Shown here: positions 51,301-64,000 of the stretch, in pieces
Layout: each line of letters starts with the position of its first letter
Numbering within the stretch: position 1 is the stretch's first letter
Source: Ostrea edulis
Taxonomy: Eukaryota
Direction: 5' to 3'
Length of the DNA stretch: 64,000 nt
Assembly: GCF_947568905.1 (NCBI RefSeq)
Contig: NC_079168.1
Location: 15,810,001-15,874,000 of the forward strand
The notes under the pieces: model-generated
What the model was told of the DNA's origin: nothing
The model's input: only the letters and a program-made list of their open reading frames with translations
The model's database searches: none
Made by a program: the position numbers and the translations under genes

Positions 51301-52200
51301 CCTAAATGTACAAAATGTTTTCTGTACAGTCCATATGTCAAGTGGTGGGGTCATATTTCAATATTGCAAAAAATGACCCCAGATATGCACATGTTTCTTT
51401 GCAACGATATCTCAGTCAAGAAGAAGCGGTCATATTTCAACATTGGAAGAATACCCAAAAATATTAAATGTTTTAAGTAAAACTTCTCGAAATGCTTGTT
51501 ATGAGCATGCTGCCTTCGTTGAAGCTTGTTCTTTGCTCAAACAACAGAACACAAGTTTTATTTTTTCCAAAATTGTCATTTATTGAAAAAAAAATGACGT
51601 AATAAAACTGTGGTATGAAAAACTGGGAGTCCAATCACATTACACATTATACAATAACCATCTGGGCCAAACTCGCCTTATTGCAAACATATTTCAAAAT
51701 CATCACAAACATAAAAGGAAAGAATGCCTCCCAGTACTAGATTATAAAACCGAAGCAAAAAAGGTGGCCAAAAATTCTCCCACAAAACAAGGTGAAATAC
51801 ATACATGTATGAAACCTTGTAGGCCAAGGGGCCCAAAATGGGATAAAGTATATACATAAATGTTATACTTCAACGAACCTTACTTCAAACAATTTATTAA
51901 TATAAATTTATATTTATGTACAGTCCATATTTTGGACAAGTGGTGGAGTCATATTTCAACATTGAAAAATGATCCCAAATATACACAGTCAGGCAGTAGA
52001 GTATGGCACGTCAAACGTTGCAATGTATGATCTTTTCCATTTGTATTGTACATTTTTTCATTTGTAATGTATAATTTTTCAGTAAATTTTGTATTCCATA
52101 TTTTCCATTTGTATCGTATATTTTCCATTTGTATTGTATATTTTCCATTTCTATTTTATGGTTTCCATTTGCATTTTATATTTTCCATTTCTATTATTAT

Positions 52201-52338
52201 AAAGATCCCTTCCTGCTCAATGGCCATAAACGCCGAGCATAGGCCTAAATTTTACAGCCCTTCACCGGCAATAGTGACGTCTCCATATGAGTGAAATATT
52301 CTCGAGGAGGACGTTAAACAATATTTAATCAATCAATC
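52201..52338 (+). mobile_element. MetaSINE-like 3' fragment
   Basis: Matches 34190-34330. Confidence 0.75.
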
Positions 52339-52567
52339 TATATTTTCCACTTGTAGTATTTGATTTTGTCATTGGGAATTGTATGATTTCCATTTGTATT
52401 GATTTTTAAAAAAAATTGTTATTATAAACGAGGGATTGTTTATTTTTGTTTGTTACAAAGGATTTGATTGGATTAATCTTACGTTATCGTTTATCAAATC
52501 GTATTTATGTGTGCCCGGCGCTGGATTTGTCATTGCTAGCTACGTGTTCAACTAGCCCTACATGGAA

Positions 52568-52915
52568 CCGGTCGCAGTAGCTCAGTGATATATCCTTTGG
52601 TTCATGACTGTTAGGTCGTGAGTTCGAGCCCCGCTCGTGCCATGGCTGCATCAAACATAGGTAGTAATTACCCCTTCGCCAAACACTCGGCATTTCAATG
52701 TGAGAAGCATGGGTCTCTCGGATATGACCTTAAAAGCAGAGACCCCCGTGTTGCGGCACGTGTTGGCATGTTAAAGAACCCCAACTGCTATAACACTTTG
52801 CGCTAAGGAAAAGTCTATTTGTGGTACTGCACCTACAGCTGGTGACGTCTCAGTATGGGTGAGTGAACAATTCTGGAAGTGACGTTGACTAATTAAATCC
52901 TTCGTAACAAATCAA
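52568..52915 (+). mobile_element. tRNA-SINE (MetaSINE-like subfamily)
   Basis: gtagctcagtg A box, gagttcgagccc B box, ccccgtgttgcggcacgtgttggcatgttaaagaaccc core. Confidence 0.75.
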
Positions 52916-53609
52916 AATAAACAATCCCTAGGATGCAATACAAATAAAAAAAAATTACAATACAAATGGAAATTATACTATGCAAATGAAAAATTATATA
53001 ATACAAATGGAAACTATATAATACAAATGAAAAATTATACAATTCAAATGGAAAATATAGAATACAAATGGAAAATTATACAATACAAATAAAACTTCAT
53101 ATAATACCAGTGAAAAATTATGCAATACAAATAGAAAAGATCAAATATTGCAACGTTTGACATTCCATGCCGTAGTAGGTATCAATATTTCAACATTGAA
53201 AGAATTCCCTCAGTAGTATAAGGCGTCCCGATAGGGGGTTCAACTGAGTGCACTTTTTATGCAAATGAGGTCAAGTAAGGGCGTTTTTGATTGGTCAAGC
53301 GGTGTCGGGGTCAACGGAGTGCACTAGGACGGGGTCAACCCCAGCAGGGGTTGTAGAGCGGGTGAATAGGCTGGCCTATGGTCCTAATTTTAGCATGCGG
53401 TACTTTCGCTTTGAGTTCCTGGAATGAGTTCCTGCTATTTTTCTGAAAATCCAGTGAAATCCTGTGTATTAAATCTAAAAGAATAACAGTGTATTAAATC
53501 TAAAAGAATAACACAAGGTTTTAAGTTGACATGTTTATTAAAGAACAATAGTACAATCCCCAGAGCTGGCACGGTCCCTAGTTTTACCCAGCGCTGTCTA
53601 CAGGTAATA

Positions 53610-53644
53610 TATATAAAGCGGCGCGCGGTGCATTGGGTGTCACT
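53610..53644 (+). promoter_or_regulatory. TATA plus Inr promoter of polB
   Basis: TATATAAA (53610) and TCACT (53640), then gacatcATG. Confidence 0.55.
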
Positions 53645-53653
53645 TTCGACATC

Positions 53654-56600
53654 ATGTCAGACAAGTTACCTACTGGACTTCCACGGAGTTATATTGAACA
53701 GCGATTGAGATTTTTGAATGATCAGCTGAACAGACAACGGCAGCGTGAATTACAACTCCGCAGAGAGAATCAACGACGACTACAGTATTTACAGCGGGGA
53801 GGGGGAAAAAAGAAACTCATTTCGGATTATTACAAAATTCAACTGGAACGAGGACGTCAATCACGGAAATTTAAAGTCAAGGAAAATGTCTACAATGTTG
53901 CTTTCAAACCTATTCCAGAGAAAGAAAATACAGCCTTCATTCGTCGGCTCTTCCGGGATATGTTAAAAAATGTGAAACAGGAAATGCAGTGCAATCCCAA
54001 TGATTATCTACGTTTAAATATTCGGCACCCGTCTCTGGATTCAGCTATTTGGTACGAATTTACGCAGTCCAATCAGCTCAACGAGGACAAAATTCTGAAC
54101 AAAATAGAATCCGTCCAGCAATCTAAAAAGGAATTCCTAATCACCGACGGGGCAGTGCAGATGGATTTTTTCCATGTCAAATATCCACAAGGCAGCGGGT
54201 GCACTAAGAAAAAACATCTACACGTGGATAAGGAAAAATTCAAAACCTCCAAGAGAGCGATCGTTCGCATTCAAAATCCTGAGGATTCTCTCTGCTTGTC
54301 CCGGGCTATTGTGGTAGCACGTCTACACAGCCAGAAATCAAACGACCCGGCATGGGAAACGAAATGGTTACGCATGAGAAAAGGGGATAAAGATTCTCTC
54401 GATCAGAAACGAGAAGCGATAGCCTTGATGGAACAAGCTGGGTGTGTTATGAACCAGCCGTGTGGGCCACGTGAATGGGAGCAATTACAGCACGCGCTCG
54501 CCCCACAGTATCGATTGAAAATATTTCAATTCAAAACGAATACAACTCGTTTACGACTGGAACCTATTTACAAAGGACCGGGGTACGGGACTTGTTTGAA
54601 TATCCTGCTGGATAACGAGCATTACGATGCCATTGTGTCTATGCCTGGAGTGACGGAAAACGGATACTATTGCGATTATTGCGATGTTGGTTACAGTCAC
54701 ATTGAAGATCATCGGACCGTCTGTCCTCATCGATGCTCATTTTGTTTAGCCGATACCCCCTGTACCCCGGACGGGACTCAGACGAATTGCCCTCATTGTA
54801 AGGGATTTTTCAGAAATGCAGCTTGTTACCAGAACCATTTAAAACCCTACAGCAGTAATACAACGACCACGGTCTGCAGTTTAATGGGGCGTTGTAACCA
54901 GTGTCAGAAATGGATGTCCAAGAAATTATTAAAACGCCACGCGTGTGGGGGTCAAACCGAATGCCGCATCTGTCACAAAGTCGTCACCATGCCTCATCAC
55001 TGCTTTGTACAGACGAAACCCAAACCTAAGAAAGAAAAAGAAGAAGAAGAGGAGTTGAAAATATACATTTATTACGATTTCGAATGCAGTCAGGAAAACG
55101 GTATTCACATTCCCAATTTATGCGTGGCAGAACGTGTGTGTCAACATTGCGACAGTGTGGATATCGACAAGCCCTGTTCTCATTGTGAAGGATTCGGATC
55201 ACAACGCCGCTTCCTATTTCAAGGACCCGACACGTTAAAACAGTTTATGGAATGGCTCTTACAGAGCGAGACCGATGAGCAAGGCCATGTGGAACTCAAA
55301 CACGATGAAGCCACCATCATTGCCCACAATTTCAAAGGATACGATGGGCAGTTTATTTTGAATTACCTGGTTCACACGGCGTGTATCAAACCCACCGTCA
55401 TCCTGAACGGCAGTAAAATCTTATCCATGCAAGTCTTGGGGTTGAGATTCATCGATTCTTACAACTTTCTACCCTTTGCTCTTGCCAAGATGCCCTCTGC
55501 TTTCGGATTAACGGAATTGAAAAAAGGATATTTCCCGCACTTTTTCAACACGACAGAGAACCAGCAGTATGTGGGTCCTTACCCGGCCGCTCATTTCTAC
55601 AATCCTGACGATATGTCCACCGCCAATCGTGAAGCCTTCTATACTTGGTACCATCAACAAGAGGGCAAAGTCTTTGATTTCCAGAAAGAATTCTTAGCTT
55701 ACTGCATCTCGGATGTGGATATTTTACGCCGGTGTTGTGCCCATTTCAAGTCCACCCTGTTTGATCTGGTGGAAGTAGACCCCTTTCAAGAATCCATCAC
55801 GTTTGCCAGCACGGCTAATTTAGCCTACCGACGAGGATTCATGGTTGAAAATACCATCGCCATCATTCCCAATATGGGCTACCGGCCAGCACGACGATAT
55901 TCAGCTAAAGCTTGTCGATGGTTCGCCTGGCTAGAACATCAACATCACTGCATACGACATGCTAGAAATGGGGGCGAAGTCACGCTTGGACCCTATACAG
56001 TAGATGGGTATGATGAGGAATCTCGTATCGTGTACGAATTCTATGGCTGTTACTGGCACGGCTGTCCCACCTGTTTCCCGAATCTGTTGACTGACATGCA
56101 TCCTCATCGTGTTCAGCATACGTATCAAGACCTCTACCTGGACACCTTAAAACGAGCCAGTGCTTTAGAAGACCAAGGCTATACAGTCGTGAGCATATGG
56201 GAACACGAGTTTGATCGTCAGACCCAGACCAATCCCGACTTACAGGAATTTTTACAAGGAGTCGATATACAAGATCCTTTGAATCCCCGTGACGCTTTGT
56301 ACGGAGGCCGGACCAATGCTACACGACTGTATTGTGAGGAGGGTGACATGCGATACGTGGATGTCTGTTCCCTGTACCCGTACGTGTTGAAATACAAGCC
56401 ATTTCCCGTCCAACATCCCCAAGTCATCACCAGCCATTTCACCGATGTCAGAGACTATTTCGGGCTCATTCGTTGTCGTGTCCTCCCACCCCGAGAGCTG
56501 TATCACCCCGTATTACCTTACAAGACCGGGGGTAAATTACTCTTTCCCTTATGCCGCACCTGTGCGGAACAGCGCAACTTAGGACCCGACGAGCGGTGCC

Positions 56601-57616
56601 AGCACACCGATTCTGAACGCAGTCTCACGGGCACCTGGGTGACCACCGAACTTCACAAAGCATTAGATCTAGGCTATCGTCTCGACCGCATTTACGAAGT
56701 TTGGCATTTTGAGAAAACCAGTGACCACTTATTTCGAGCGTATATCAACACCTTTTTGAAAATTAAACAAGAAGCTTCCGGATTCCCCGAGGATTGTCAA
56801 ACAGCCCAACAGCAGCAACATTACATTGAGGAAATTCAGCAACGAGAAGGCATTGCCATGAATCCGGCCGACATCCAGAAAAATCCGGTCCGAAGAACCA
56901 TTGCCAAACTCTTTTTAAATTGTTTGTGGGGAAAATTTGCTCAACGATTACAATTACCCAAATCCCTGTATCTCACGGAAGAAGAAGAATTACATCAGAA
57001 ATTACAAGATGCCACTTTAGAAGTCAAAGGCATCGAACTCTTAGAAAATCGTGAACGCCCCGAATGTGATATGATGCTGATCAATTATCAGGAGAAAGAA
57101 GAATTTTTAGAAGACTGTCCCTTTGGAAACGTGGTGCTGGCGTGTTTTACAACAGCTCATGCTCGTTTACATTTGTACGAGACGTTACAGCCTTTGGGAG
57201 AGCGTGTCTTATACTTTGACACGGATAGTATCATCTATCAGCACGACGAGACCCAGTTCAACCCGACCATTATCAACAGTTTAGGCGGCTGGACCGATGA
57301 ATTGGGTGGAGATCGTATCATCAAGTACATGTCGGGCGGGCCCAAAAATTATGCATACGAGACCCAGGGGGGAAAATCTGTCTGCAAAGTCAAAGGATTG
57401 ACACTCAATTATCGTGCCTCTAGAGTCGTGTCTCTCGATACGTTGGAAAAAATGTTGAAAGGAGAAGAAGAAGAAGTCCATGTCCGCTATCCGCACTTTA
57501 TTCAACGAACCCGCCAACATGATGTGCGAACCATTCCTCTGGTGAAGAAATACCGCATGGTGTATGATAAACGTCAACGTATTCATAACTATGACACGCT
57601 GCCTTACGGGTATTAA
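53654..57616 (+). CDS. polB: Protein-primed DNA polymerase B (1320 aa)
   Basis: Exo I YYDFE, Exo II HNFKGYDGQF, Exo III YCISDVDIL; Pol motifs YVDVCSLYP, KLFLNCLWGKF, YFDTDS; no stops. First ATG 53654. Confidence 0.97.
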   Translation: MSDKLPTGLPRSYIEQRLRFLNDQLNRQRQRELQLRRENQRRLQYLQRGGGKKKLISDYYKIQLERGRQSRKFKVKENVYNVAFKPIPEKENTAFIRRLFRDMLKNVKQEMQCNPNDYLRLNIRHPSLDSAIWYEFTQSNQLNEDKILNKIESVQQSKKEFLITDGAVQMDFFHVKYPQGSGCTKKKHLHVDKEKFKTSKRAIVRIQNPEDSLCLSRAIVVARLHSQKSNDPAWETKWLRMRKGDKDSLDQKREAIALMEQAGCVMNQPCGPREWEQLQHALAPQYRLKIFQFKTNTTRLRLEPIYKGPGYGTCLNILLDNEHYDAIVSMPGVTENGYYCDYCDVGYSHIEDHRTVCPHRCSFCLADTPCTPDGTQTNCPHCKGFFRNAACYQNHLKPYSSNTTTTVCSLMGRCNQCQKWMSKKLLKRHACGGQTECRICHKVVTMPHHCFVQTKPKPKKEKEEEEELKIYIYYDFECSQENGIHIPNLCVAERVCQHCDSVDIDKPCSHCEGFGSQRRFLFQGPDTLKQFMEWLLQSETDEQGHVELKHDEATIIAHNFKGYDGQFILNYLVHTACIKPTVILNGSKILSMQVLGLRFIDSYNFLPFALAKMPSAFGLTELKKGYFPHFFNTTENQQYVGPYPAAHFYNPDDMSTANREAFYTWYHQQEGKVFDFQKEFLAYCISDVDILRRCCAHFKSTLFDLVEVDPFQESITFASTANLAYRRGFMVENTIAIIPNMGYRPARRYSAKACRWFAWLEHQHHCIRHARNGGEVTLGPYTVDGYDEESRIVYEFYGCYWHGCPTCFPNLLTDMHPHRVQHTYQDLYLDTLKRASALEDQGYTVVSIWEHEFDRQTQTNPDLQEFLQGVDIQDPLNPRDALYGGRTNATRLYCEEGDMRYVDVCSLYPYVLKYKPFPVQHPQVITSHFTDVRDYFGLIRCRVLPPRELYHPVLPYKTGGKLLFPLCRTCAEQRNLGPDERCQHTDSERSLTGTWVTTELHKALDLGYRLDRIYEVWHFEKTSDHLFRAYINTFLKIKQEASGFPEDCQTAQQQQHYIEEIQQREGIAMNPADIQKNPVRRTIAKLFLNCLWGKFAQRLQLPKSLYLTEEEELHQKLQDATLEVKGIELLENRERPECDMMLINYQEKEEFLEDCPFGNVVLACFTTAHARLHLYETLQPLGERVLYFDTDSIIYQHDETQFNPTIINSLGGWTDELGGDRIIKYMSGGPKNYAYETQGGKSVCKVKGLTLNYRASRVVSLDTLEKMLKGEEEEVHVRYPHFIQRTRQHDVRTIPLVKKYRMVYDKRQRIHNYDTLPYGY

Positions 57617-57644
57617 AAAGGACATGCTAGAGAAAACCATCAGT
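57611..57644 (+). promoter_or_regulatory. TATA plus Inr promoter of iap
   Basis: TATTAAAA (57611, overlapping the polB stop) and TCAGT at 57640. Confidence 0.55.
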
Positions 57645-57651
57645 CGGCAAA

Positions 57652-58179
57652 ATGACGGACTACGAATCACTACATAACCCGGGTACACCACGTTATGCTC
57701 TACTGTCAGATCGAGTAACGTCGTTTGAAAATGCTCCCGAACACTTGCAGAACCTATTACCTACCATTGCAGAAGCGGGATACTTTTACAAAGGGTACGG
57801 GGATAACACGTGCTGTTTTTATTGCAACTTTGGACTTCACCATTGGGGAGCTGTCGACAATCCTTGGATACAACATGCTTATTGGTATCCTCACTGTCCT
57901 TACCTGAAGTGTAATAAGGGTAAACAATGGGTACGACAAGCCTTCAATGCCTATGCCCGCGCTAAAGACAGTGGTTGCGATTGGGAAGGCTTACCCTTAG
58001 ACGCGGCAGGGAATCCAATGTGTACCCAGAAATGTCACATTTGTTTAGAACGAGACTTGAGAATTGCTTTTTTACCTTGTGGTCATTTATGTACTTGTGC
58101 TATATGTGCTACGGGACTGAAACAATGTCCTATTTGTAGACATGGTGTTGAGCAAGCTGTACGTATTTTTATTTGTTAA
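57652..58179 (+). CDS. iap: Inhibitor of apoptosis, one BIR plus C-terminal RING (175 aa)
   Basis: BIR: RVTSF..AEAGYFYKG..CFYC-x16-H-x6-C; RING: CHIC..FLPCGHLCTCAIC..CPICR. Intronless. Confidence 0.95.
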   Translation: MTDYESLHNPGTPRYALLSDRVTSFENAPEHLQNLLPTIAEAGYFYKGYGDNTCCFYCNFGLHHWGAVDNPWIQHAYWYPHCPYLKCNKGKQWVRQAFNAYARAKDSGCDWEGLPLDAAGNPMCTQKCHICLERDLRIAFLPCGHLCTCAICATGLKQCPICRHGVEQAVRIFIC

Positions 58180-58219
58180 TAAATATGTATGATCCCATGA
58201 ACTTGTGTCATTTATCAAG

Positions 58220-58858
58220 ATGTATACCTACGAGACACTTGAACCTTTTCAGTTGAAACATGAATTTACCATGGTGGTGGCTGGACCCTCTAAATCGGGT
58301 AAAACAGAATTTGTCAAGCAACTGGTGCAAAATACACAGTGGATTGCACCGCCTCCCGAAAAGATAGTATGGTGTTATCGAGAATGGCAGTCCGCGTACG
58401 AATCCTTACAGGACAAGGTCACTTTTATCCGCAATATACCTCAAGACGATGAGCAGATAGTGGCGGATCTCAGTACGCGTCATCTACTCATTTTTGATGA
58501 TATGATGGGAGGTAAAGCCATCGAATCGATTGTCGACTGGTTTACGCGCAAAGCGCATCATCGCAATACCAGTGTCATTTATATCACACAAAATCTGTTT
58601 GATCGAGCAGTACAACATCGTACCATCAGTCTGAATGCTCACTATCTTGTGCTGTTTAAAAATCCTCGAGATAAATCTCAGATTGGGGTGTTAAGTCGGC
58701 AATTACAAATGCCACATTTACTTCCAGCCTATGAGGACGCCACCCGTGTACCTCACGGGTATTTACTAGTGGACTTGAGTCCTCAGACGTCGGACGATTT
58801 AAGATTAAGAAGTCAACTCTTTACCAACTTGGCTGTTCACATGCCCCCGAGAGTATAA
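58220..58858 (+). CDS. A32/FtsK-like genome packaging ATPase (212 aa)
   Basis: Walker A GPSKSGKT, Walker B LLIFDD, HRNTSVIYITQNLF, RTISLNAHYLVLF. Confidence 0.95.
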   Translation: MYTYETLEPFQLKHEFTMVVAGPSKSGKTEFVKQLVQNTQWIAPPPEKIVWCYREWQSAYESLQDKVTFIRNIPQDDEQIVADLSTRHLLIFDDMMGGKAIESIVDWFTRKAHHRNTSVIYITQNLFDRAVQHRTISLNAHYLVLFKNPRDKSQIGVLSRQLQMPHLLPAYEDATRVPHGYLLVDLSPQTSDDLRLRSQLFTNLAVHMPPRV

Positions 58859-58871
58859 ATAATGTCACATC

Positions 58872-59780
58872 ATGGGCAGGTGTATCATTCGAAAGACAGT
58901 CTTCATCATGGGTAGACCTTCCGCGAAGAGTAAATTAGTCAAAACGTTACGCCGTTTACAACGGGAACGGGATCCCGTTCAACGGAGCCATCTCATTGAA
59001 TTAGGACGTAGAGCCTTACTCAACTGGTTTGCGATGGGCGCTCGAAATTTATTGCGAGGCGTCTTACCAGGCAATAAAATCACTCAGCGGTTCATTCAAT
59101 CCCATCGCCAAGACTTGAGTGTCATTGCCGATAAGAAGTCCAATGAAGAAGAGCGTAAAAAAGCCATTTTGAAACGAGGAGGCGCCGGATTCTTAGGAGG
59201 GACCATTATCCGTCATTTATTCAAATGGGAAACAGGCCGTAAGCCCCGTGGGGGACAACCCAAGAAAACCAAGAAACCACGGGCTAAGAAAGCTAAAAAA
59301 TCACCTCAGAGAATTCCTAAACTCATTATTCGCTTACCTAAGAAGACACCTAAGAAGTCCCCTAAGAAATCCCCTAAGAAGACACCTCTCAGGATGAAGA
59401 ATCCGTTTCCCAATTGGGCTCCAAAGAAAACCCCTCTCATTGTGAAGATGCCGTTTCCCAAGGCCACTCCCCCCAAGGCCACTAAAACGTTAGCCAATCT
59501 GAAAGCCGGATTAGCTCAAAAGAAAATGGAACGACCCATGCATGGGCCTATAGGAAGTTCCAGAACCAGTGATACTGCTCTACCGAGTTTTGCTCATACC
59601 TTTGGAAGCATGAAATTTCAACCCTTAACCACCTCAACACCGGTTCAGGTGCAAAAGAAATATAAATGTAAATTTTGCCCTCTGGTCTTCAATGCGAGAG
59701 AGAACCGCAATCGTCACGAAGAGACCGTCCATCACAAGCGTTTTGATCCTAAACATCCGAGTGCCGTTGTCCTGGACTAG
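58872..59780 (+). CDS. Basic core-like protein with S/TPKK repeats and a C-terminal C2H2 finger (302 aa; likely start 58908)
   Basis: KKTPKKSPKKSPKKTP; CKFCPLVFNARENRNRHEETVH. N-terminal half resembles the neighbouring 109-aa ORF (NLLRGVLP vs NLLKGVIP). Confidence 0.8.
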   Translation: MGRCIIRKTVFIMGRPSAKSKLVKTLRRLQRERDPVQRSHLIELGRRALLNWFAMGARNLLRGVLPGNKITQRFIQSHRQDLSVIADKKSNEEERKKAILKRGGAGFLGGTIIRHLFKWETGRKPRGGQPKKTKKPRAKKAKKSPQRIPKLIIRLPKKTPKKSPKKSPKKTPLRMKNPFPNWAPKKTPLIVKMPFPKATPPKATKTLANLKAGLAQKKMERPMHGPIGSSRTSDTALPSFAHTFGSMKFQPLTTSTPVQVQKKYKCKFCPLVFNARENRNRHEETVHHKRFDPKHPSAVVLD

Positions 59781-59820
59781 GTATAAAAAGGAGGGGTAAG
59801 GTGCCCCACCCTTCATTACC

Positions 59821-60150
59821 ATGGCTCATACGAAGAAGTGTGAATGTCGATTACGACCTCATTTACCGCTCTTGCAGACGTTAGCGGCTCCTCACTATTC
59901 CAGCAAATTAAAGACAGAGGTGTTGAAACATTGTTCCAATGACTGCATTTTAAAGATTTGTGAGATTGTGTACAATCTATTAAAAGGGGTGATTCCTCTC
60001 AATCCTACTCAGAAGCGACAACTGGGTCGAAAGAAACACATCTTAAGACGCTTAGTCCGGACTCAACCCGTGAAAAAACGACGAGGTATACTCATCCACC
60101 AAAAAGGATTGGGTTCGTTTGTGTGTGGCAAGATTTGTAAGAAATCATGA
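59821..60150 (+). CDS. Conserved small basic Polinton protein (core-like, 109 aa)
   Basis: ICEIVYNLLKGVIPLNPTQKRQL..HILRRL..QKG pattern recurrent in Polintons (recognised from memory); own TATA/Inr. Confidence 0.8.
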   Translation: MAHTKKCECRLRPHLPLLQTLAAPHYSSKLKTEVLKHCSNDCILKICEIVYNLLKGVIPLNPTQKRQLGRKKHILRRLVRTQPVKKRRGILIHQKGLGSFVCGKICKKS

Positions 60151-60914
60151 GTCGAAAAATGGTATTGGTACCGGAAGCGATGCTCAACGAATTAAAAGGC
60201 AAATTACCTAAACCTCCCGAATTTACCTCGACTATTGGTTTACGCAGTGATTTGGACGAGATTGAACATCGAGATGATTTAACCGAGAAAGAAAAAGTGG
60301 GGTTGTACGGGCATCAACTTCATCGCTATCGTCAATATTTACAACAAGCTCGACATCCCACCCCAGCGACTCTATCCTCCCCAACCACTGCAACCAGTGC
60401 CGCCTCACCACCCACAGCCGCCTCAGCATCCGATGACTTGGAGGAACAGATTATCAAAAGCGTCAATAAACCGGGTCGAAAGAAAGCAGGTTTATTACTC
60501 GATCATCTCAAGAAATCCAAAGTGGTGACTTGGAATAAAGAAGGAGAAATCAGCTATAGAGGACGCAGGGTTCCCGATTCCAATATTGTGGATTTAATGA
60601 CCGAAGCCCAACGACAAAGACCCTTAAGACATCGTGATCCCCCCGCGGGATTAGAGGAATTTGCTCAAGCGTTAAAAGAGACTCATGCTCCCAAAGGATA
60701 TGTGAACAATCGGGATGTTATAAAAGCCATGGACAAACCAGGGAAAATCAGTACGCCTAGACCTCTAGAGGAAGAGGAGAGCGGATTTCAAGAAATCTCT
60801 GGTTTTGACCAATCGTTCTATGAAACTCCCAGACGAATGATGACCCCTAAAAATATCTGGGAGGCCAGTAAAAAGACATCACGTGAAATTGGAAAATGGT
60901 TAAATCTACCATGA
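60147..60914 (+). CDS. Conserved uncharacterised Polinton protein (255 aa)
   Basis: MSRKMVLVP start; TWNKEGEI..PDSNIVDL motif typical of the ORF upstream of Polinton integrases; ATGA overlaps at both ends. Confidence 0.8.
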   Translation: MSRKMVLVPEAMLNELKGKLPKPPEFTSTIGLRSDLDEIEHRDDLTEKEKVGLYGHQLHRYRQYLQQARHPTPATLSSPTTATSAASPPTAASASDDLEEQIIKSVNKPGRKKAGLLLDHLKKSKVVTWNKEGEISYRGRRVPDSNIVDLMTEAQRQRPLRHRDPPAGLEEFAQALKETHAPKGYVNNRDVIKAMDKPGKISTPRPLEEEESGFQEISGFDQSFYETPRRMMTPKNIWEASKKTSREIGKWLNLP

Positions 60915-61981
60915 AAGCAGAACAGATCTTACAGCGACTGTATTACGATCCCAAGACAGGGTATGGGGGAGTCCAGGCGTTGTATCGTCAAGTGCGTCAA
61001 TTAGGACACAAGATTACCCTGTCTCAAATTCGAGAATGGGTGAAAGCTCAAGATACCTATACCTTGCATAAACCGATACGGAGGAAATTCAAGCGACGAC
61101 AAACACGCGTGACGGATATGGATGAACAATGGCAATTAGATTTAGCCGATGTCTCCAGCTTGAAACAAGACAATAATGGGTATACGTTTTTATTATGTGC
61201 CATTGACGTGCTGTCTAAATATGCCTGGGTCGTGCCTTTAAAACAGAAAACGGGGAAAGAAATGATACGAGGCTTACGACGGATTTTTCGAGAGGGACGT
61301 CGCCCCGTGCGCATTCAGTCCGATCAAGGAAAAGAATTTACCAATAAAGAATTTCGTCAAGCCTTCAAATCCATTCATTTCTTTACGACCCGTAATGCCG
61401 AAACCAAAGCCAGTATTGTGGAACGTTTTCAACGCACGCTGAAAGCACGCATGTGGCGGTATTTTACACGTCATAAAACACGACGGTATGTCGATGTCTT
61501 GGGGGATCTGGTGTATGGTTACAATCATACCTATCATCGCAGTATCCGGCGAGCTCCTGCTCAAGTCAATGCCAAGAATGTCTTGACCGTATGGAAAACC
61601 TTGTATGGAAAACAGAGTGCCGATACCACGAGTCGCTTGCAAGTGGGGGATCGTGTACGCATTAGTAAAGCCAAACGTACGTTTGAAAAAGGATATTTAC
61701 CGAATTGGACCAAAGAACTGTTTACCATCTCTAGAAAAGTGCCAGGACGAAACGTCTATCGTATTCAAGATGATCACGGGGAAGAATTAGAAGGAACGTT
61801 TTACGAGAAGGAATTACAACAAGTGATTAAAGACGATGATGTCTATGAAGTGGAAGAAATCTTAGGGTATAAAAAGCGGCGTGTGGGAAAAAAAGTCATT
61901 TCAGAAGTCAAAGTGCGTTGGAAAGGATATCCTCCCAGTTTTGATTCATGGATTCCGCAAGCGGATCTCATTCGGCCATGA
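60911..61981 (+). CDS. int: Retroviral-like (RVE) integrase with C-terminal chromodomain (356 aa)
   Basis: WQLDLAD, IQSDQGKEF, KASIVERFQRTLK (DDE); YEVEEIL..VRWKGYPPSFDSWIP. Confidence 0.96.
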   Translation: MKAEQILQRLYYDPKTGYGGVQALYRQVRQLGHKITLSQIREWVKAQDTYTLHKPIRRKFKRRQTRVTDMDEQWQLDLADVSSLKQDNNGYTFLLCAIDVLSKYAWVVPLKQKTGKEMIRGLRRIFREGRRPVRIQSDQGKEFTNKEFRQAFKSIHFFTTRNAETKASIVERFQRTLKARMWRYFTRHKTRRYVDVLGDLVYGYNHTYHRSIRRAPAQVNAKNVLTVWKTLYGKQSADTTSRLQVGDRVRISKAKRTFEKGYLPNWTKELFTISRKVPGRNVYRIQDDHGEELEGTFYEKELQQVIKDDDVYEVEEILGYKKRRVGKKVISEVKVRWKGYPPSFDSWIPQADLIRP

Positions 61982-62235
61982 CCAACCAGTGGACTTTCTT
62001 GGGTGAAAAAGTCCCTCGAGCAGAAATTGTGTATTTTGCACAATTATTCCTGTGTTTAACCATCATTATCACTTCGGTCGTCATGTTAGCCTTAGGCGAT
62101 CCCAATCGCGATTTTTGGATGGTGACCTTAAGTTCTTTGGTGGGCTACGTCATGCCTAGTCCACAAATGACGTTAGCGAGCCCGAGTATAAAACAGGAAC
62201 GATCTTCTTCAGATTCATCAGTTCACCATGGCTAA
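61978..62235 (+). CDS. Small two-transmembrane-helix protein (85 aa)
   Basis: ATG overlaps the integrase stop (ATGA); hydrophobic IVYFAQLFLCLTIIITSVVMLAL and FWMVTLSSLVGYVMPSP. Confidence 0.75.
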   Translation: MTNQWTFLGEKVPRAEIVYFAQLFLCLTIIITSVVMLALGDPNRDFWMVTLSSLVGYVMPSPQMTLASPSIKQERSSSDSSVHHG

Positions 62236-62680
62236 CACACAGTACGCCTGGAAACAAGAGGGAAAGAAAACGGCATGGTTTGCGGATAAGCAGATGTGTT
62301 TGATGCATTGTAAACAACACAAAACGTCCACGCATCCTGTGTACTTGTACAAACGTATACTGATACCTCACGGATGGTCAGCCTTTATCATGAAGACCAA
62401 GTATCAAGAGTTTCGCTGGAAAGTCAAAGCCTTCTGGGGATTGATTGGACGACAAGACGAATCCGATTGGACCTTAAATGAGAGTCCTTGGTTTGACCAT
62501 TCCGAGGACTGTCTCCGACATTTCAAAGACATGATCAATGAAGGTTATGATGTAGCCGATTGCTGGGGAACCCGACACTATCTGGTGATGCGACGACGCT
62601 TAGTCCCGAGACGAACACTAGAGTTGGAAGACTCGGATGCGTTGATGTGGGGTGGTGGTGGCCGCGATCAAGAAGAATGA
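62228..62680 (+). CDS. Hypothetical Trp-rich protein (150 aa)
   Basis: Open ORF with good Kozak (caccATGG), packed between neighbours, followed by AATAAA at about 62723; no motif recognised. Confidence 0.65.
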   Translation: MANTQYAWKQEGKKTAWFADKQMCLMHCKQHKTSTHPVYLYKRILIPHGWSAFIMKTKYQEFRWKVKAFWGLIGRQDESDWTLNESPWFDHSEDCLRHFKDMINEGYDVADCWGTRHYLVMRRRLVPRRTLELEDSDALMWGGGGRDQEE

Positions 62681-62757
62681 CATGTAAAATTGTGTATTAA
62701 CATTATGTTGTATGTTGTTTCAAATAAAAAATTGTGAAAAAACAAAACGGTGTTGTG

Positions 62758-62793
62758 TATAAATAGAGAAGGAAACAGAGACAGGGGCTCATT
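62758..62793 (+). promoter_or_regulatory. TATA plus Inr promoter of the minor capsid gene
   Basis: TATAAAT (62758) and TCATT (62789), then gacatcATG. Confidence 0.6.
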
Positions 62794-62802
62794 TAAGACA
62801 TC

Positions 62803-63798
62803 ATGGCTGGAGGAGAAGGGTTTTACATGACTCTGTTGAGTGATGGGTCGATGGAATCGTTTCCGACGAATACGACTGCTCAATTTAAAACGTTATTGCC
62901 ACACACCATGGACTTAACGGATGGAGCATGGGAAGTCGGATTGACCGAAATGATGTACTCGGCCAACTTACAAAACGTATCGGATAGCGAGGCTTATGTG
63001 GACGTTCTCATTCCAGATCCGTATACGAAACATGTCCAAGATCCCAACACTTATAAATGGGAAAGATTTAAGACAGAGAATATGGGCAAAGTCACGATGG
63101 CCAGGTGTGAGGTGGTGGTCCCCTGGGATCTGACGCCATGGTCCCATCTCTTTGCGGGAGGGGATAGTTTATTTCCCTTCGATATCATTCGCATTCACTT
63201 CCGACCCGGAGCTTATACACAACCTTTGGCGTTAATCAATGAAATCAACGCAGCCTTAAGGAGAACCCTGTGGAAAGTATGGAGTGAGTTAGGGAATCCT
63301 AACGACGAGGGGAACAACCAGATCTTAGTGTATCACCCCGAGTACGATCGTGTCGAGTATCAGTTTAATGGGAAAGCACTGAGAACCACCCCCATGTGCA
63401 TTCGTTTCCCTACACCCTTAGCGTACAAGCTAGGTCTGGATAGTGACAAAATGATCCTGGGCGATGAAACCATGACGAAATGGATCAACGTGAATTACTT
63501 GGGGAACACGACCATGGATGTCTACGACAATCTGAAAGCCATGTATGTGTATTGTGACATTGTGGATCCTCAAGTGGTGGGCACCAACAAATTGAAATTA
63601 TTGAGAGTCGTCCCCTGTACGGGTCAATACGACGATCGACAACAAGCCCGTTGGGAACCGATTCGAGCCGAATATTTGAAACTGAGTAAGAAATATTTCG
63701 ATACCATTGAGGTACACATCATGAATTCTTTAGGGCGTCCTATGGGGTTTTTAAATGGGCGCTCCTTAGTCAAACTTCATTTCCGCAAAGTGTATTGA
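62803..63798 (+). CDS. Minor capsid protein (penton, single jelly roll; 331 aa)
   Basis: FYMTLLSDGSMESFPTNTTAQFKTLLP..WEVGLTE; MYVYCDIVDPQVVG..LLRVV; FDTIEVHI..G..LVKLHFR. Confidence 0.9.
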   Translation: MAGGEGFYMTLLSDGSMESFPTNTTAQFKTLLPHTMDLTDGAWEVGLTEMMYSANLQNVSDSEAYVDVLIPDPYTKHVQDPNTYKWERFKTENMGKVTMARCEVVVPWDLTPWSHLFAGGDSLFPFDIIRIHFRPGAYTQPLALINEINAALRRTLWKVWSELGNPNDEGNNQILVYHPEYDRVEYQFNGKALRTTPMCIRFPTPLAYKLGLDSDKMILGDETMTKWINVNYLGNTTMDVYDNLKAMYVYCDIVDPQVVGTNKLKLLRVVPCTGQYDDRQQARWEPIRAEYLKLSKKYFDTIEVHIMNSLGRPMGFLNGRSLVKLHFRKVY

Positions 63799-63801
63799 AA
63801 G

Positions 63802-63945
63802 ATGAAGTACCATCGAGGAGTCAGACGCCAGAAAGGACACGGAATCTGGTTTCTCATTCCGTGGATTGCCAATGCCATTGTGGGTCAAGCGGGCCAAGGA
63901 AAGAAGAGAAAGAGACGGCGTAAAAAGTATAAAAAGCGGGTGTAA
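63802..63945 (+). CDS. 47-aa basic micro-ORF (core/mu-like), absent from the ORF track
   Basis: MKYHRGVRRQKGHGIWFLIPWIANAIVGQAGQGKKRKRRRKKYKKRV*; starts 3 nt after the minor capsid stop. Confidence 0.7.
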   Translation: MKYHRGVRRQKGHGIWFLIPWIANAIVGQAGQGKKRKRRRKKYKKRV

Positions 63946-63972
63946 CCCCTAACGAAGTTCATTTACATCAAG

Positions 63973-64000
63973 ATGCACTACCATAAAGGTTTAATACGGC
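63973..64000 (+). CDS. Start of the next Polinton ORF (truncated by window end)
   Basis: MHYHKGLIR.. resembles MKYHRGVRR; preceded by TATAAAA (63928) and TCATT (63959). Confidence 0.5.

Follow-up and report, generated by a model that had tools for sequence, protein, structure and literature searches.

Is the element that begins at position 53212 and runs off the right edge of the analysed DNA an intact, recently inserted Maverick/Polinton, as a preliminary description of its left part had supposed, and does it come from a family that may still spread as a virus? The window, i.e. the whole stretch of DNA analysed, comprises 64,000 nucleotides of the Ostrea edulis genome (C5:15810001-15874000); the analysis was extended to the right half of the element, given below in L001 coordinates, and to its sister copies. 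The locus carries a complete and young copy of a Maverick/Polinton family that is present in the oyster in high copy number, and we regard it as probable that this family spreads as an integrating virus.

Termini and gene content

The left terminus was as sharp as had been claimed: AGTAGT begins at 53212, with TCCCTC immediately before it. The right end anticipated beyond the window was found at C5:15883003-15883347, where the terminal inverted repeat (TIR) ends with ACTACT and is followed by a perfect TCCCTC. In total the copy measures 20,136 bp. Its 345-bp TIRs are identical over 338 bp, the single mismatch being at position 339; a mismatch at 339-340 recurs in 11 of 20 sister copies. The size and the long TIRs fall within the range of Polintons/Mavericks (13-25 kb) given in the available text of PMC8097293, and the 6-bp target-site duplication (TSD) of these elements is present on both sides of the window copy and, in perfect form, in 24 of 25 sisters. 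Within the window, ORFs longer than 100 aa occupy 90% of the element versus 10% of the flank, and the GC content is 45% versus 36%, so the described contrast with decayed flanks was borne out. The reported lack of nested transposon insertions also held, since the copy could be aligned in colinear order with each of the 20 close sisters, the differences being small indels and deletions.

In the flank at 51950-53170 a 20-21-bp AT-rich repeat forms inverted arrays, and short high-copy repeats are also present there, with a read depth of approx. 5,000 at 52205-52305; the Maverick was inserted in repeat-rich DNA. The TSDs of 20 target sites (the window copy and 19 sisters) have 57% GC compared with 36% in the flank, and TGTGTG was seen twice among them.

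The features of the element are the following.

53206..53211, no strand: left TSD TCCCTC, 6 bp; same hexamer after the right end
53212..53556, +: left TIR, 345 bp, begins with AGTAGT, contains 2 x 25-bp tandem repeat
53654..57616, +: protein-primed DNA polymerase B (pPolB), 1320 aa; PF03175 E 3e-57; exonuclease and Pol A/B/C motifs
57652..58179, +: IAP-like protein, BIR and RING, 175 aa; PF00653 E 2e-15, PF13920 E 2e-11
58220..58858, +: A32/FtsK-like packaging ATPase, 212 aa; PF04665 E 5e-7; Walker A and B
58872..59780, +: basic ORF, 302 aa, weak C2H2 finger, no firm family
59821..60150, +: conserved ORF, 109 aa, no family match
60147..60914, +: conserved ORF, 255 aa, no firm family; ATGA overlap with the 109-aa ORF
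60896..61981, +: RVE integrase with chromodomain, 361 aa; PF00665 E 2e-11, PF00385 E 4e-8; DDE motifs
61948..62235, +: 95-aa ORF, two hydrophobic stretches (by eye); 95-96% identical in the second subfamily
62228..62680, +: conserved ORF, 150 aa, no family match
62803..63798, +: likely minor capsid (penton), 331 aa; named after position and look-alikes
63802..63945, +: 47-aa basic ORF with QxGxG motif, likely a virion core peptide (presumed role)
63973..64000 in the window (L001:473-1165), +: 230-aa basic ORF, runs past the window end
L001:1245-2648, +: likely major capsid (MCP), 467 aa; from position, size and conservation
L001:2656-3153, +: adenain-like protease; 1avp E 4e-4; His, Asp and Cys motifs
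L001:3393-3689, -: 98-aa ORF
L001:3865-4266, +: Cys-rich 133-aa ORF
L001:4257-4445, +: macrodomain-like remnant, 62 aa
L001:4596-5387, -: 263-aa ORF
L001:5951-6298, -: predicted DP71L/GADD34-like PP1-binding ORF, 115 aa
L001:6133-7524, -: four Bcl-2-like ORFs
L001:7664-8170, +: 168-aa ORF
L001:8491-9408, +: zinc-knuckle ORF
L001:9503-9847: right TIR, ends with ACTACT
L001:9848-9853: right TSD TCCCTC, directly after the right TIR

Ten plus-strand ORFs of 95-1320 aa were counted within 53654-63798, followed by the 47-aa ORF, and none of these window ORFs contains a stop or a frameshift; this agrees with the preliminary description, which had reported at least ten packed same-strand ORFs and unbroken polB, ATPase, integrase and minor capsid genes. 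The ATGA-type overlaps that it mentioned could be seen at one of the 11 gene junctions (60147-60150), while the rest are three longer overlaps (8, 19 and 34 bp) and seven gaps of 3-122 bp. The expected right half is present, with the adenain-like protease and the likely major capsid gene both open. Of the features by which Polintons/Mavericks are recognised, the following are found here: pPolB motifs, the DDE triad of an RVE integrase, an A32/FtsK ATPase and an adenain-like cysteine protease. A vOTU domain is predicted in pPolB from the layout in the available part of PMC11161782, and its Cys and His motifs are present. A Viral_Rep match was below the cut-off and was not accepted. Motifs resembling QxGxG recur in the pPolB N-terminus and in the 109-aa, 47-aa and 230-aa ORFs (window 53654-64000 and L001:473-1165), and we take them to be candidate maturation-protease sites.

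The claim of an intact element held for the core genes, which are all open, but not for the macrodomain-like gene beyond the window (weak matches). A 309-bp internal deletion in this gene is common to the window copy and 16 of the 20 close sisters (17 of 21 copies); thus the window copy is intact in its core and not in all of its genes. The other 4 of 20 close sisters have the gene at 165 aa, and each of the 8 copies that are more distant retains nearly all of it, split in one case and with a stop in another. Since it was lost in most of the closest copies, the gene is likely dispensable for spread within the genome.

Position, size and homologues make it likely that the 467-aa and 331-aa proteins are the major and the minor capsid. 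The latter had an Atlas score of 0.98 to unnamed, largely viral clusters, and the gene order around it is as in the available part of PMC4028283. The MCP gene adjoins the protease gene, and a protein search returned 503 homologues of its product at E 1e-10 or better. Sequence searches with the MCP gave nothing meaningful in Pfam, PDB or PHROG, a motif look-up against the supplements of PMC4028283 gave no match, and a search for free virus found no capsid relative in the viral contig collection. MCP homologues with up to 73% identity along the full length occur in the related Mavericks of other oysters (Crassostrea and Saccostrea), labelled as host 'F54H12.2-like', and capsid proteins 97% identical carry Ostrea edulis annotation. 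Databases thus list capsid-like proteins of oyster and clam Mavericks as a host 'uncharacterized protein F54H12.2-like', and counts of oyster IAP genes may be inflated by Maverick IAPs in a similar manner.

Sister copies, age and exchange between copies

When the oyster assembly was searched with the capsid gene, at least 78 matches at 96-100% identity were obtained, 76 of them stop-free, together with 13 matches at 87-88% identity (12 stop-free) which form a second subfamily; 91 of 269 candidates were scored. Read depth over polB corresponded to 82, 134 and 129 copies per haploid genome (runs X21, X22 and X23), counts that derive from three 2026 runs of one study with differing library types and take all reads as host DNA. 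Element DNA was also present in runs labelled oyster metagenome.

For comparison we used 20 close sisters, picked for the similarity of their TIRs, as well as the 5 copies among the 78 that are most distant and 3 members of the second subfamily. Perfect TSDs were present in 19 of the 20 close and in all 5 distant sisters. Six core genes (pPolB, ATPase, integrase, protease, likely minor and major capsid) were open in 14/20 close sisters, one further close sister had an altered minor-capsid end, and all 13 conserved-module ORFs were open in 12/20. In the distant copies polB, ATPase, integrase and protease, the genes fully covered, were unbroken in only 2 of 5. By extrapolation 30-55 of the at least 78 copies would be intact.

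Some of the insertions are unusual in their arrangement. At 68.18-68.23 Mb of C4 in the assembly (G000) two full copies face each other across approx. 3.6 kb, and both have a TSD of their own (L019, L020, L025, L026). Within a few kb of second-subfamily copies there are more Maverick termini and capsid-region fragments (L046:2441-7688, L049:8937), which may reflect clustering or internally deleted derivatives. The only sister without a matching TSD (L037/L038, C3:91.08-91.10 Mb) has related but shifted hexamers at its ends.

The insertion was described as recent, and this is supported. Only 14 of the 17,003 positions compared are private to the window copy, an upper bound of 0.08% for change since insertion; the copy is therefore young. 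Singleton variants in the core genes have a dN/dS of 0.26, thus most of them predate the insertion, and the neutral-like share of change after insertion is approx. 0.03% per site. Substitution rates are in the order of 0.5-1e-8 per site and generation, and at this assumed rate the age is estimated at tens of thousands of generations, so that the insertion is not necessarily of the present day. The identity of the TIRs was rejected as a clock, because the two ends look re-matched (see below). None of the 20 sampled sisters is identical to the window copy. One sister junction is common to the assembly and to run X6, a sample from another study, therefore at least some copies are simply inherited. 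A loose end in the same run, considered as a new insertion site, mapped to the sister at C6:86.87 Mb. As to presence or absence of the insertion at the window locus itself, the raw reads amounted to approx. 1.5-fold coverage of the genome, and among the contigs listed from four studies none spans the junction and none is an empty-site end; only X13 reaches the last 40 bp of the flank.

The copies are near-freely recombined mosaics. In 21 copies r2 decays from 0.76 at less than 100 bp to 0.06 beyond 8 kb (equilibrium 0.05), while four-gamete incompatibility is 0.05 for sites less than 100 bp apart and reaches 0.44-0.47 at distances over 3 kb. None of 500 position shuffles gave a short-range incompatibility as low, and the minimum number of recombination events is 126. 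The TIRs have a pattern of their own: at positions 1-70 every one of the 38 minor states seen at one end of a copy is also present at its other end, and at positions 151-338 they occur on both ends in 66 and on one end in 92 cases. At position 11 alone the match would arise by chance with a probability of 7e-7 if the ends were independent. We read the pattern as exchange during replication with the ends re-matched, although the TIR gradient is equally what ectopic conversion between integrated copies would produce. Deep module mosaicism is known in this virus group (bioRxiv 10.64898/2026.10.13.758929, PMC10748475), and the available parts of these two sources hold no within-genome recombination measurement of this kind.

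Selection and host-facing genes

The virion-module genes are under purifying selection. From simple counts of shared variants on recombining sequences, which are no demonstration of positive selection at any gene, the dN/dS values were 0.17 for polB, 0.06 for the integrase, 0.03 for the ATPase, 0.04 for the protease, 0.16 for MCP and 0.18 for the minor capsid. Pooled over the virion module (ATPase, protease, likely major and minor capsid), 17 non-synonymous and 39 synonymous shared variants gave a dN/dS of 0.12; if sites are treated as independent, P is 3e-9 even when the neutral expectation is set as low as 0.6. Between the subfamilies the MCP value was 0.09. The host-facing genes are looser, with 0.73 for the IAP and 0.5-0.9 for three of the four Bcl-2-like genes, one of which overlaps the PP1-binding ORF, and 7 of the 20 sisters carry a 7%-divergent allele block in the host-facing genes.

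Among these genes the IAP assignment is firm on the basis of its BIR and RING sequences. The 115-aa ORF is likely a DP71L/GADD34-like PP1 regulator, as predicted from a PF10488 (PP1c-binding) match of 28 bits against a cut-off of 26.1 and from similarity to ASFV DP71L (E 5e-5) and PPP1R15B (E 7e-5). Like DP71L and GADD34/CReP (PPP1R15A/B), it has an RVxF motif (KRVTF) followed by the conserved W..A.DR.RF.RRI segment; the oyster version is Maverick-encoded and lies in an overlapping frame. HSV ICP34.5 belongs to the same family. The ORF has its full length in all but one of the 20 sisters (106 aa in the truncated one), occurs in the second subfamily too and has two N-terminal allele types; the protein search gave one homologue. 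No paper joining Polintons with DP71L, GADD34 or PP1 was among the literature matches listed, and a prior mention is possible.

The four small paralogues (three in 2 of the 20 sisters and in the second subfamily) are weakly Bcl-2-like. The Pfam match had an E of 0.007, below the cut-off. The structural model had a pLDDT of 85 (57 with a single-sequence fold), and its Foldseek matches were mostly Bcl-2 proteins, weak ones with E 0.36-2. The top VIA matches of the model were F1L (Z 6.5, rmsd 4.8, 100 aligned) and A179L (Z 6.3, rmsd 3.5, 98 aligned), with which unrelated helical proteins tie. An Atlas search with one of the paralogues gave no usable match.

Mode of spread and relation to known elements

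In the mechanism that we propose, the linear genome would be copied by the protein-primed polymerase and packaged by the predicted capsid module of the element itself, and the integrase would insert it with formation of the 6-bp duplication. Replicating genomes may exchange segments among themselves or with copies resident in the genome, after which TIR pairing would re-match the two ends. Survival of the host cell and continued translation in it are likely promoted by the IAP, Bcl-2-like and PP1-binding proteins. Since the virion module is under selection, we infer that the copies mostly spread via particles that they encode themselves; PMC8097293 read purifying selection on morphogenesis genes in this way. 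Capsid proteins could also be supplied in trans among the approx. 100 resident copies, and capsid-like proteins might have an intracellular use.

The same data can be explained without infection, by a self-synthesising transposon multiplying in the germline within the cell, with a capsid module kept for an intracellular role or by recent viral descent and with mosaics due to ectopic gene conversion. We consider this unlikely. It is in line with the fact that no particles have been seen, with the sister insertion common to different samples and with the TIR gradient, which gene conversion fits as well, and the loss of the macrodomain-like gene in 17 of 21 copies would fit a relaxed need for viral functions. 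However, within a young burst the purifying selection on the ATPase, the protease and both capsid-like genes equals that on polB and integrase, and the small change after insertion leaves a short time for at least 126 exchanges, some of which conversion may nevertheless have produced. A finished burst appears less probable still; here the family would have entered as a virus some tens of thousands of generations back and since fallen silent, its open frames reflecting youth. In its favour, core genes are broken in 5-6 of the 20 close and 3 of the 5 distant sisters, 0/20 sampled copies match the window copy exactly and one insertion is shared; on the other hand, the continuum of divergence and the second subfamily at 88% (capsid stop-free in 12/13) point to repeated activity, and the depth-based copy number varies by run, 82 versus approx. 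130 (the library type differs too). That an assembly artefact or segmental duplication inflates the copy number is hardly credible and is refuted by the different flanks and own perfect TSDs of 24 of 25 sisters and by the agreement of independent read depth.

Spread as an integrating virus, the reading preferred here, also has a stronger form, which we put forward tentatively as possible but doubtful: the oyster would carry a circulating autonomous polintovirus, dozens of intact proviruses feeding a freely recombining pool of linear genomes that are packaged and reinfect the germline. Their defence would be a kit in the style of poxviruses and ASFV, made up of the IAP, the Bcl-2-like array and a recruiter of eIF2-alpha phosphatase, and pressure from the host would drive the swapping of its alleles.

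The family resembles the adintoviruses (Starrett et al. 2021, PMC8502044) in pPolB, RVE integrase, FtsK-like ATPase, adenain and the integrase-penton-hexon order, and Bcl2 and IAP homologues are already known there. In contrast, the searched portions of that text and supplement mention neither a DP71L/GADD34-like PP1-binding gene nor a macrodomain-like gene, and they hold no oyster entry. With the intact vertebrate Mavericks of Barreat and Katzourakis (2021, PMC8097293) it shares length (12.7-24.6 kb there), TIRs (approx. 400 bp), 6-bp TSD, open core genes and purifying selection on morphogenesis genes. The maximum there is 38 intact copies per genome, whereas the extrapolation for the oyster is 30-55. 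All core genes of the oyster element lie on one strand, an arrangement reported there for Xenopus tropicalis, and its accessory genes form a single large region at the right; the near-free recombination among copies is absent from the available part of that account. Among the literature matches listed there was no earlier description of this oyster family; one of them, PMC9679248, has a single mention of Mavericks. Maverick particles had never been observed as of 2021 (PMC8097293), and no later particle structure was among the matches listed in a weak check.

A single intact copy is ordinary; the interest lies in the family, with its copy number, mostly open genes, selection on the virion module, recombination and likely counter-defence kit. 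At approx. 1.6-2.6 Mb it is a source of structural variation and of mis-annotated 'host' genes (such as the capsids labelled F54H12.2-like) in oyster genomics. The near-free recombination and the matched termini provide a measurable clue to the replication of the element, and the PP1-binding gene, if active, would give Mavericks a way round translation shut-off that is not among their known tools. A farmed oyster with approx. 80-130 young copies, many of them open in the core, offers ample material for finding natural particles, transcripts and new insertions, and makes the family a good host for asking if animal Mavericks make particles. If a circulating polintovirus does exist in the oyster, it would be a direct route to seeing a native animal Maverick virion.
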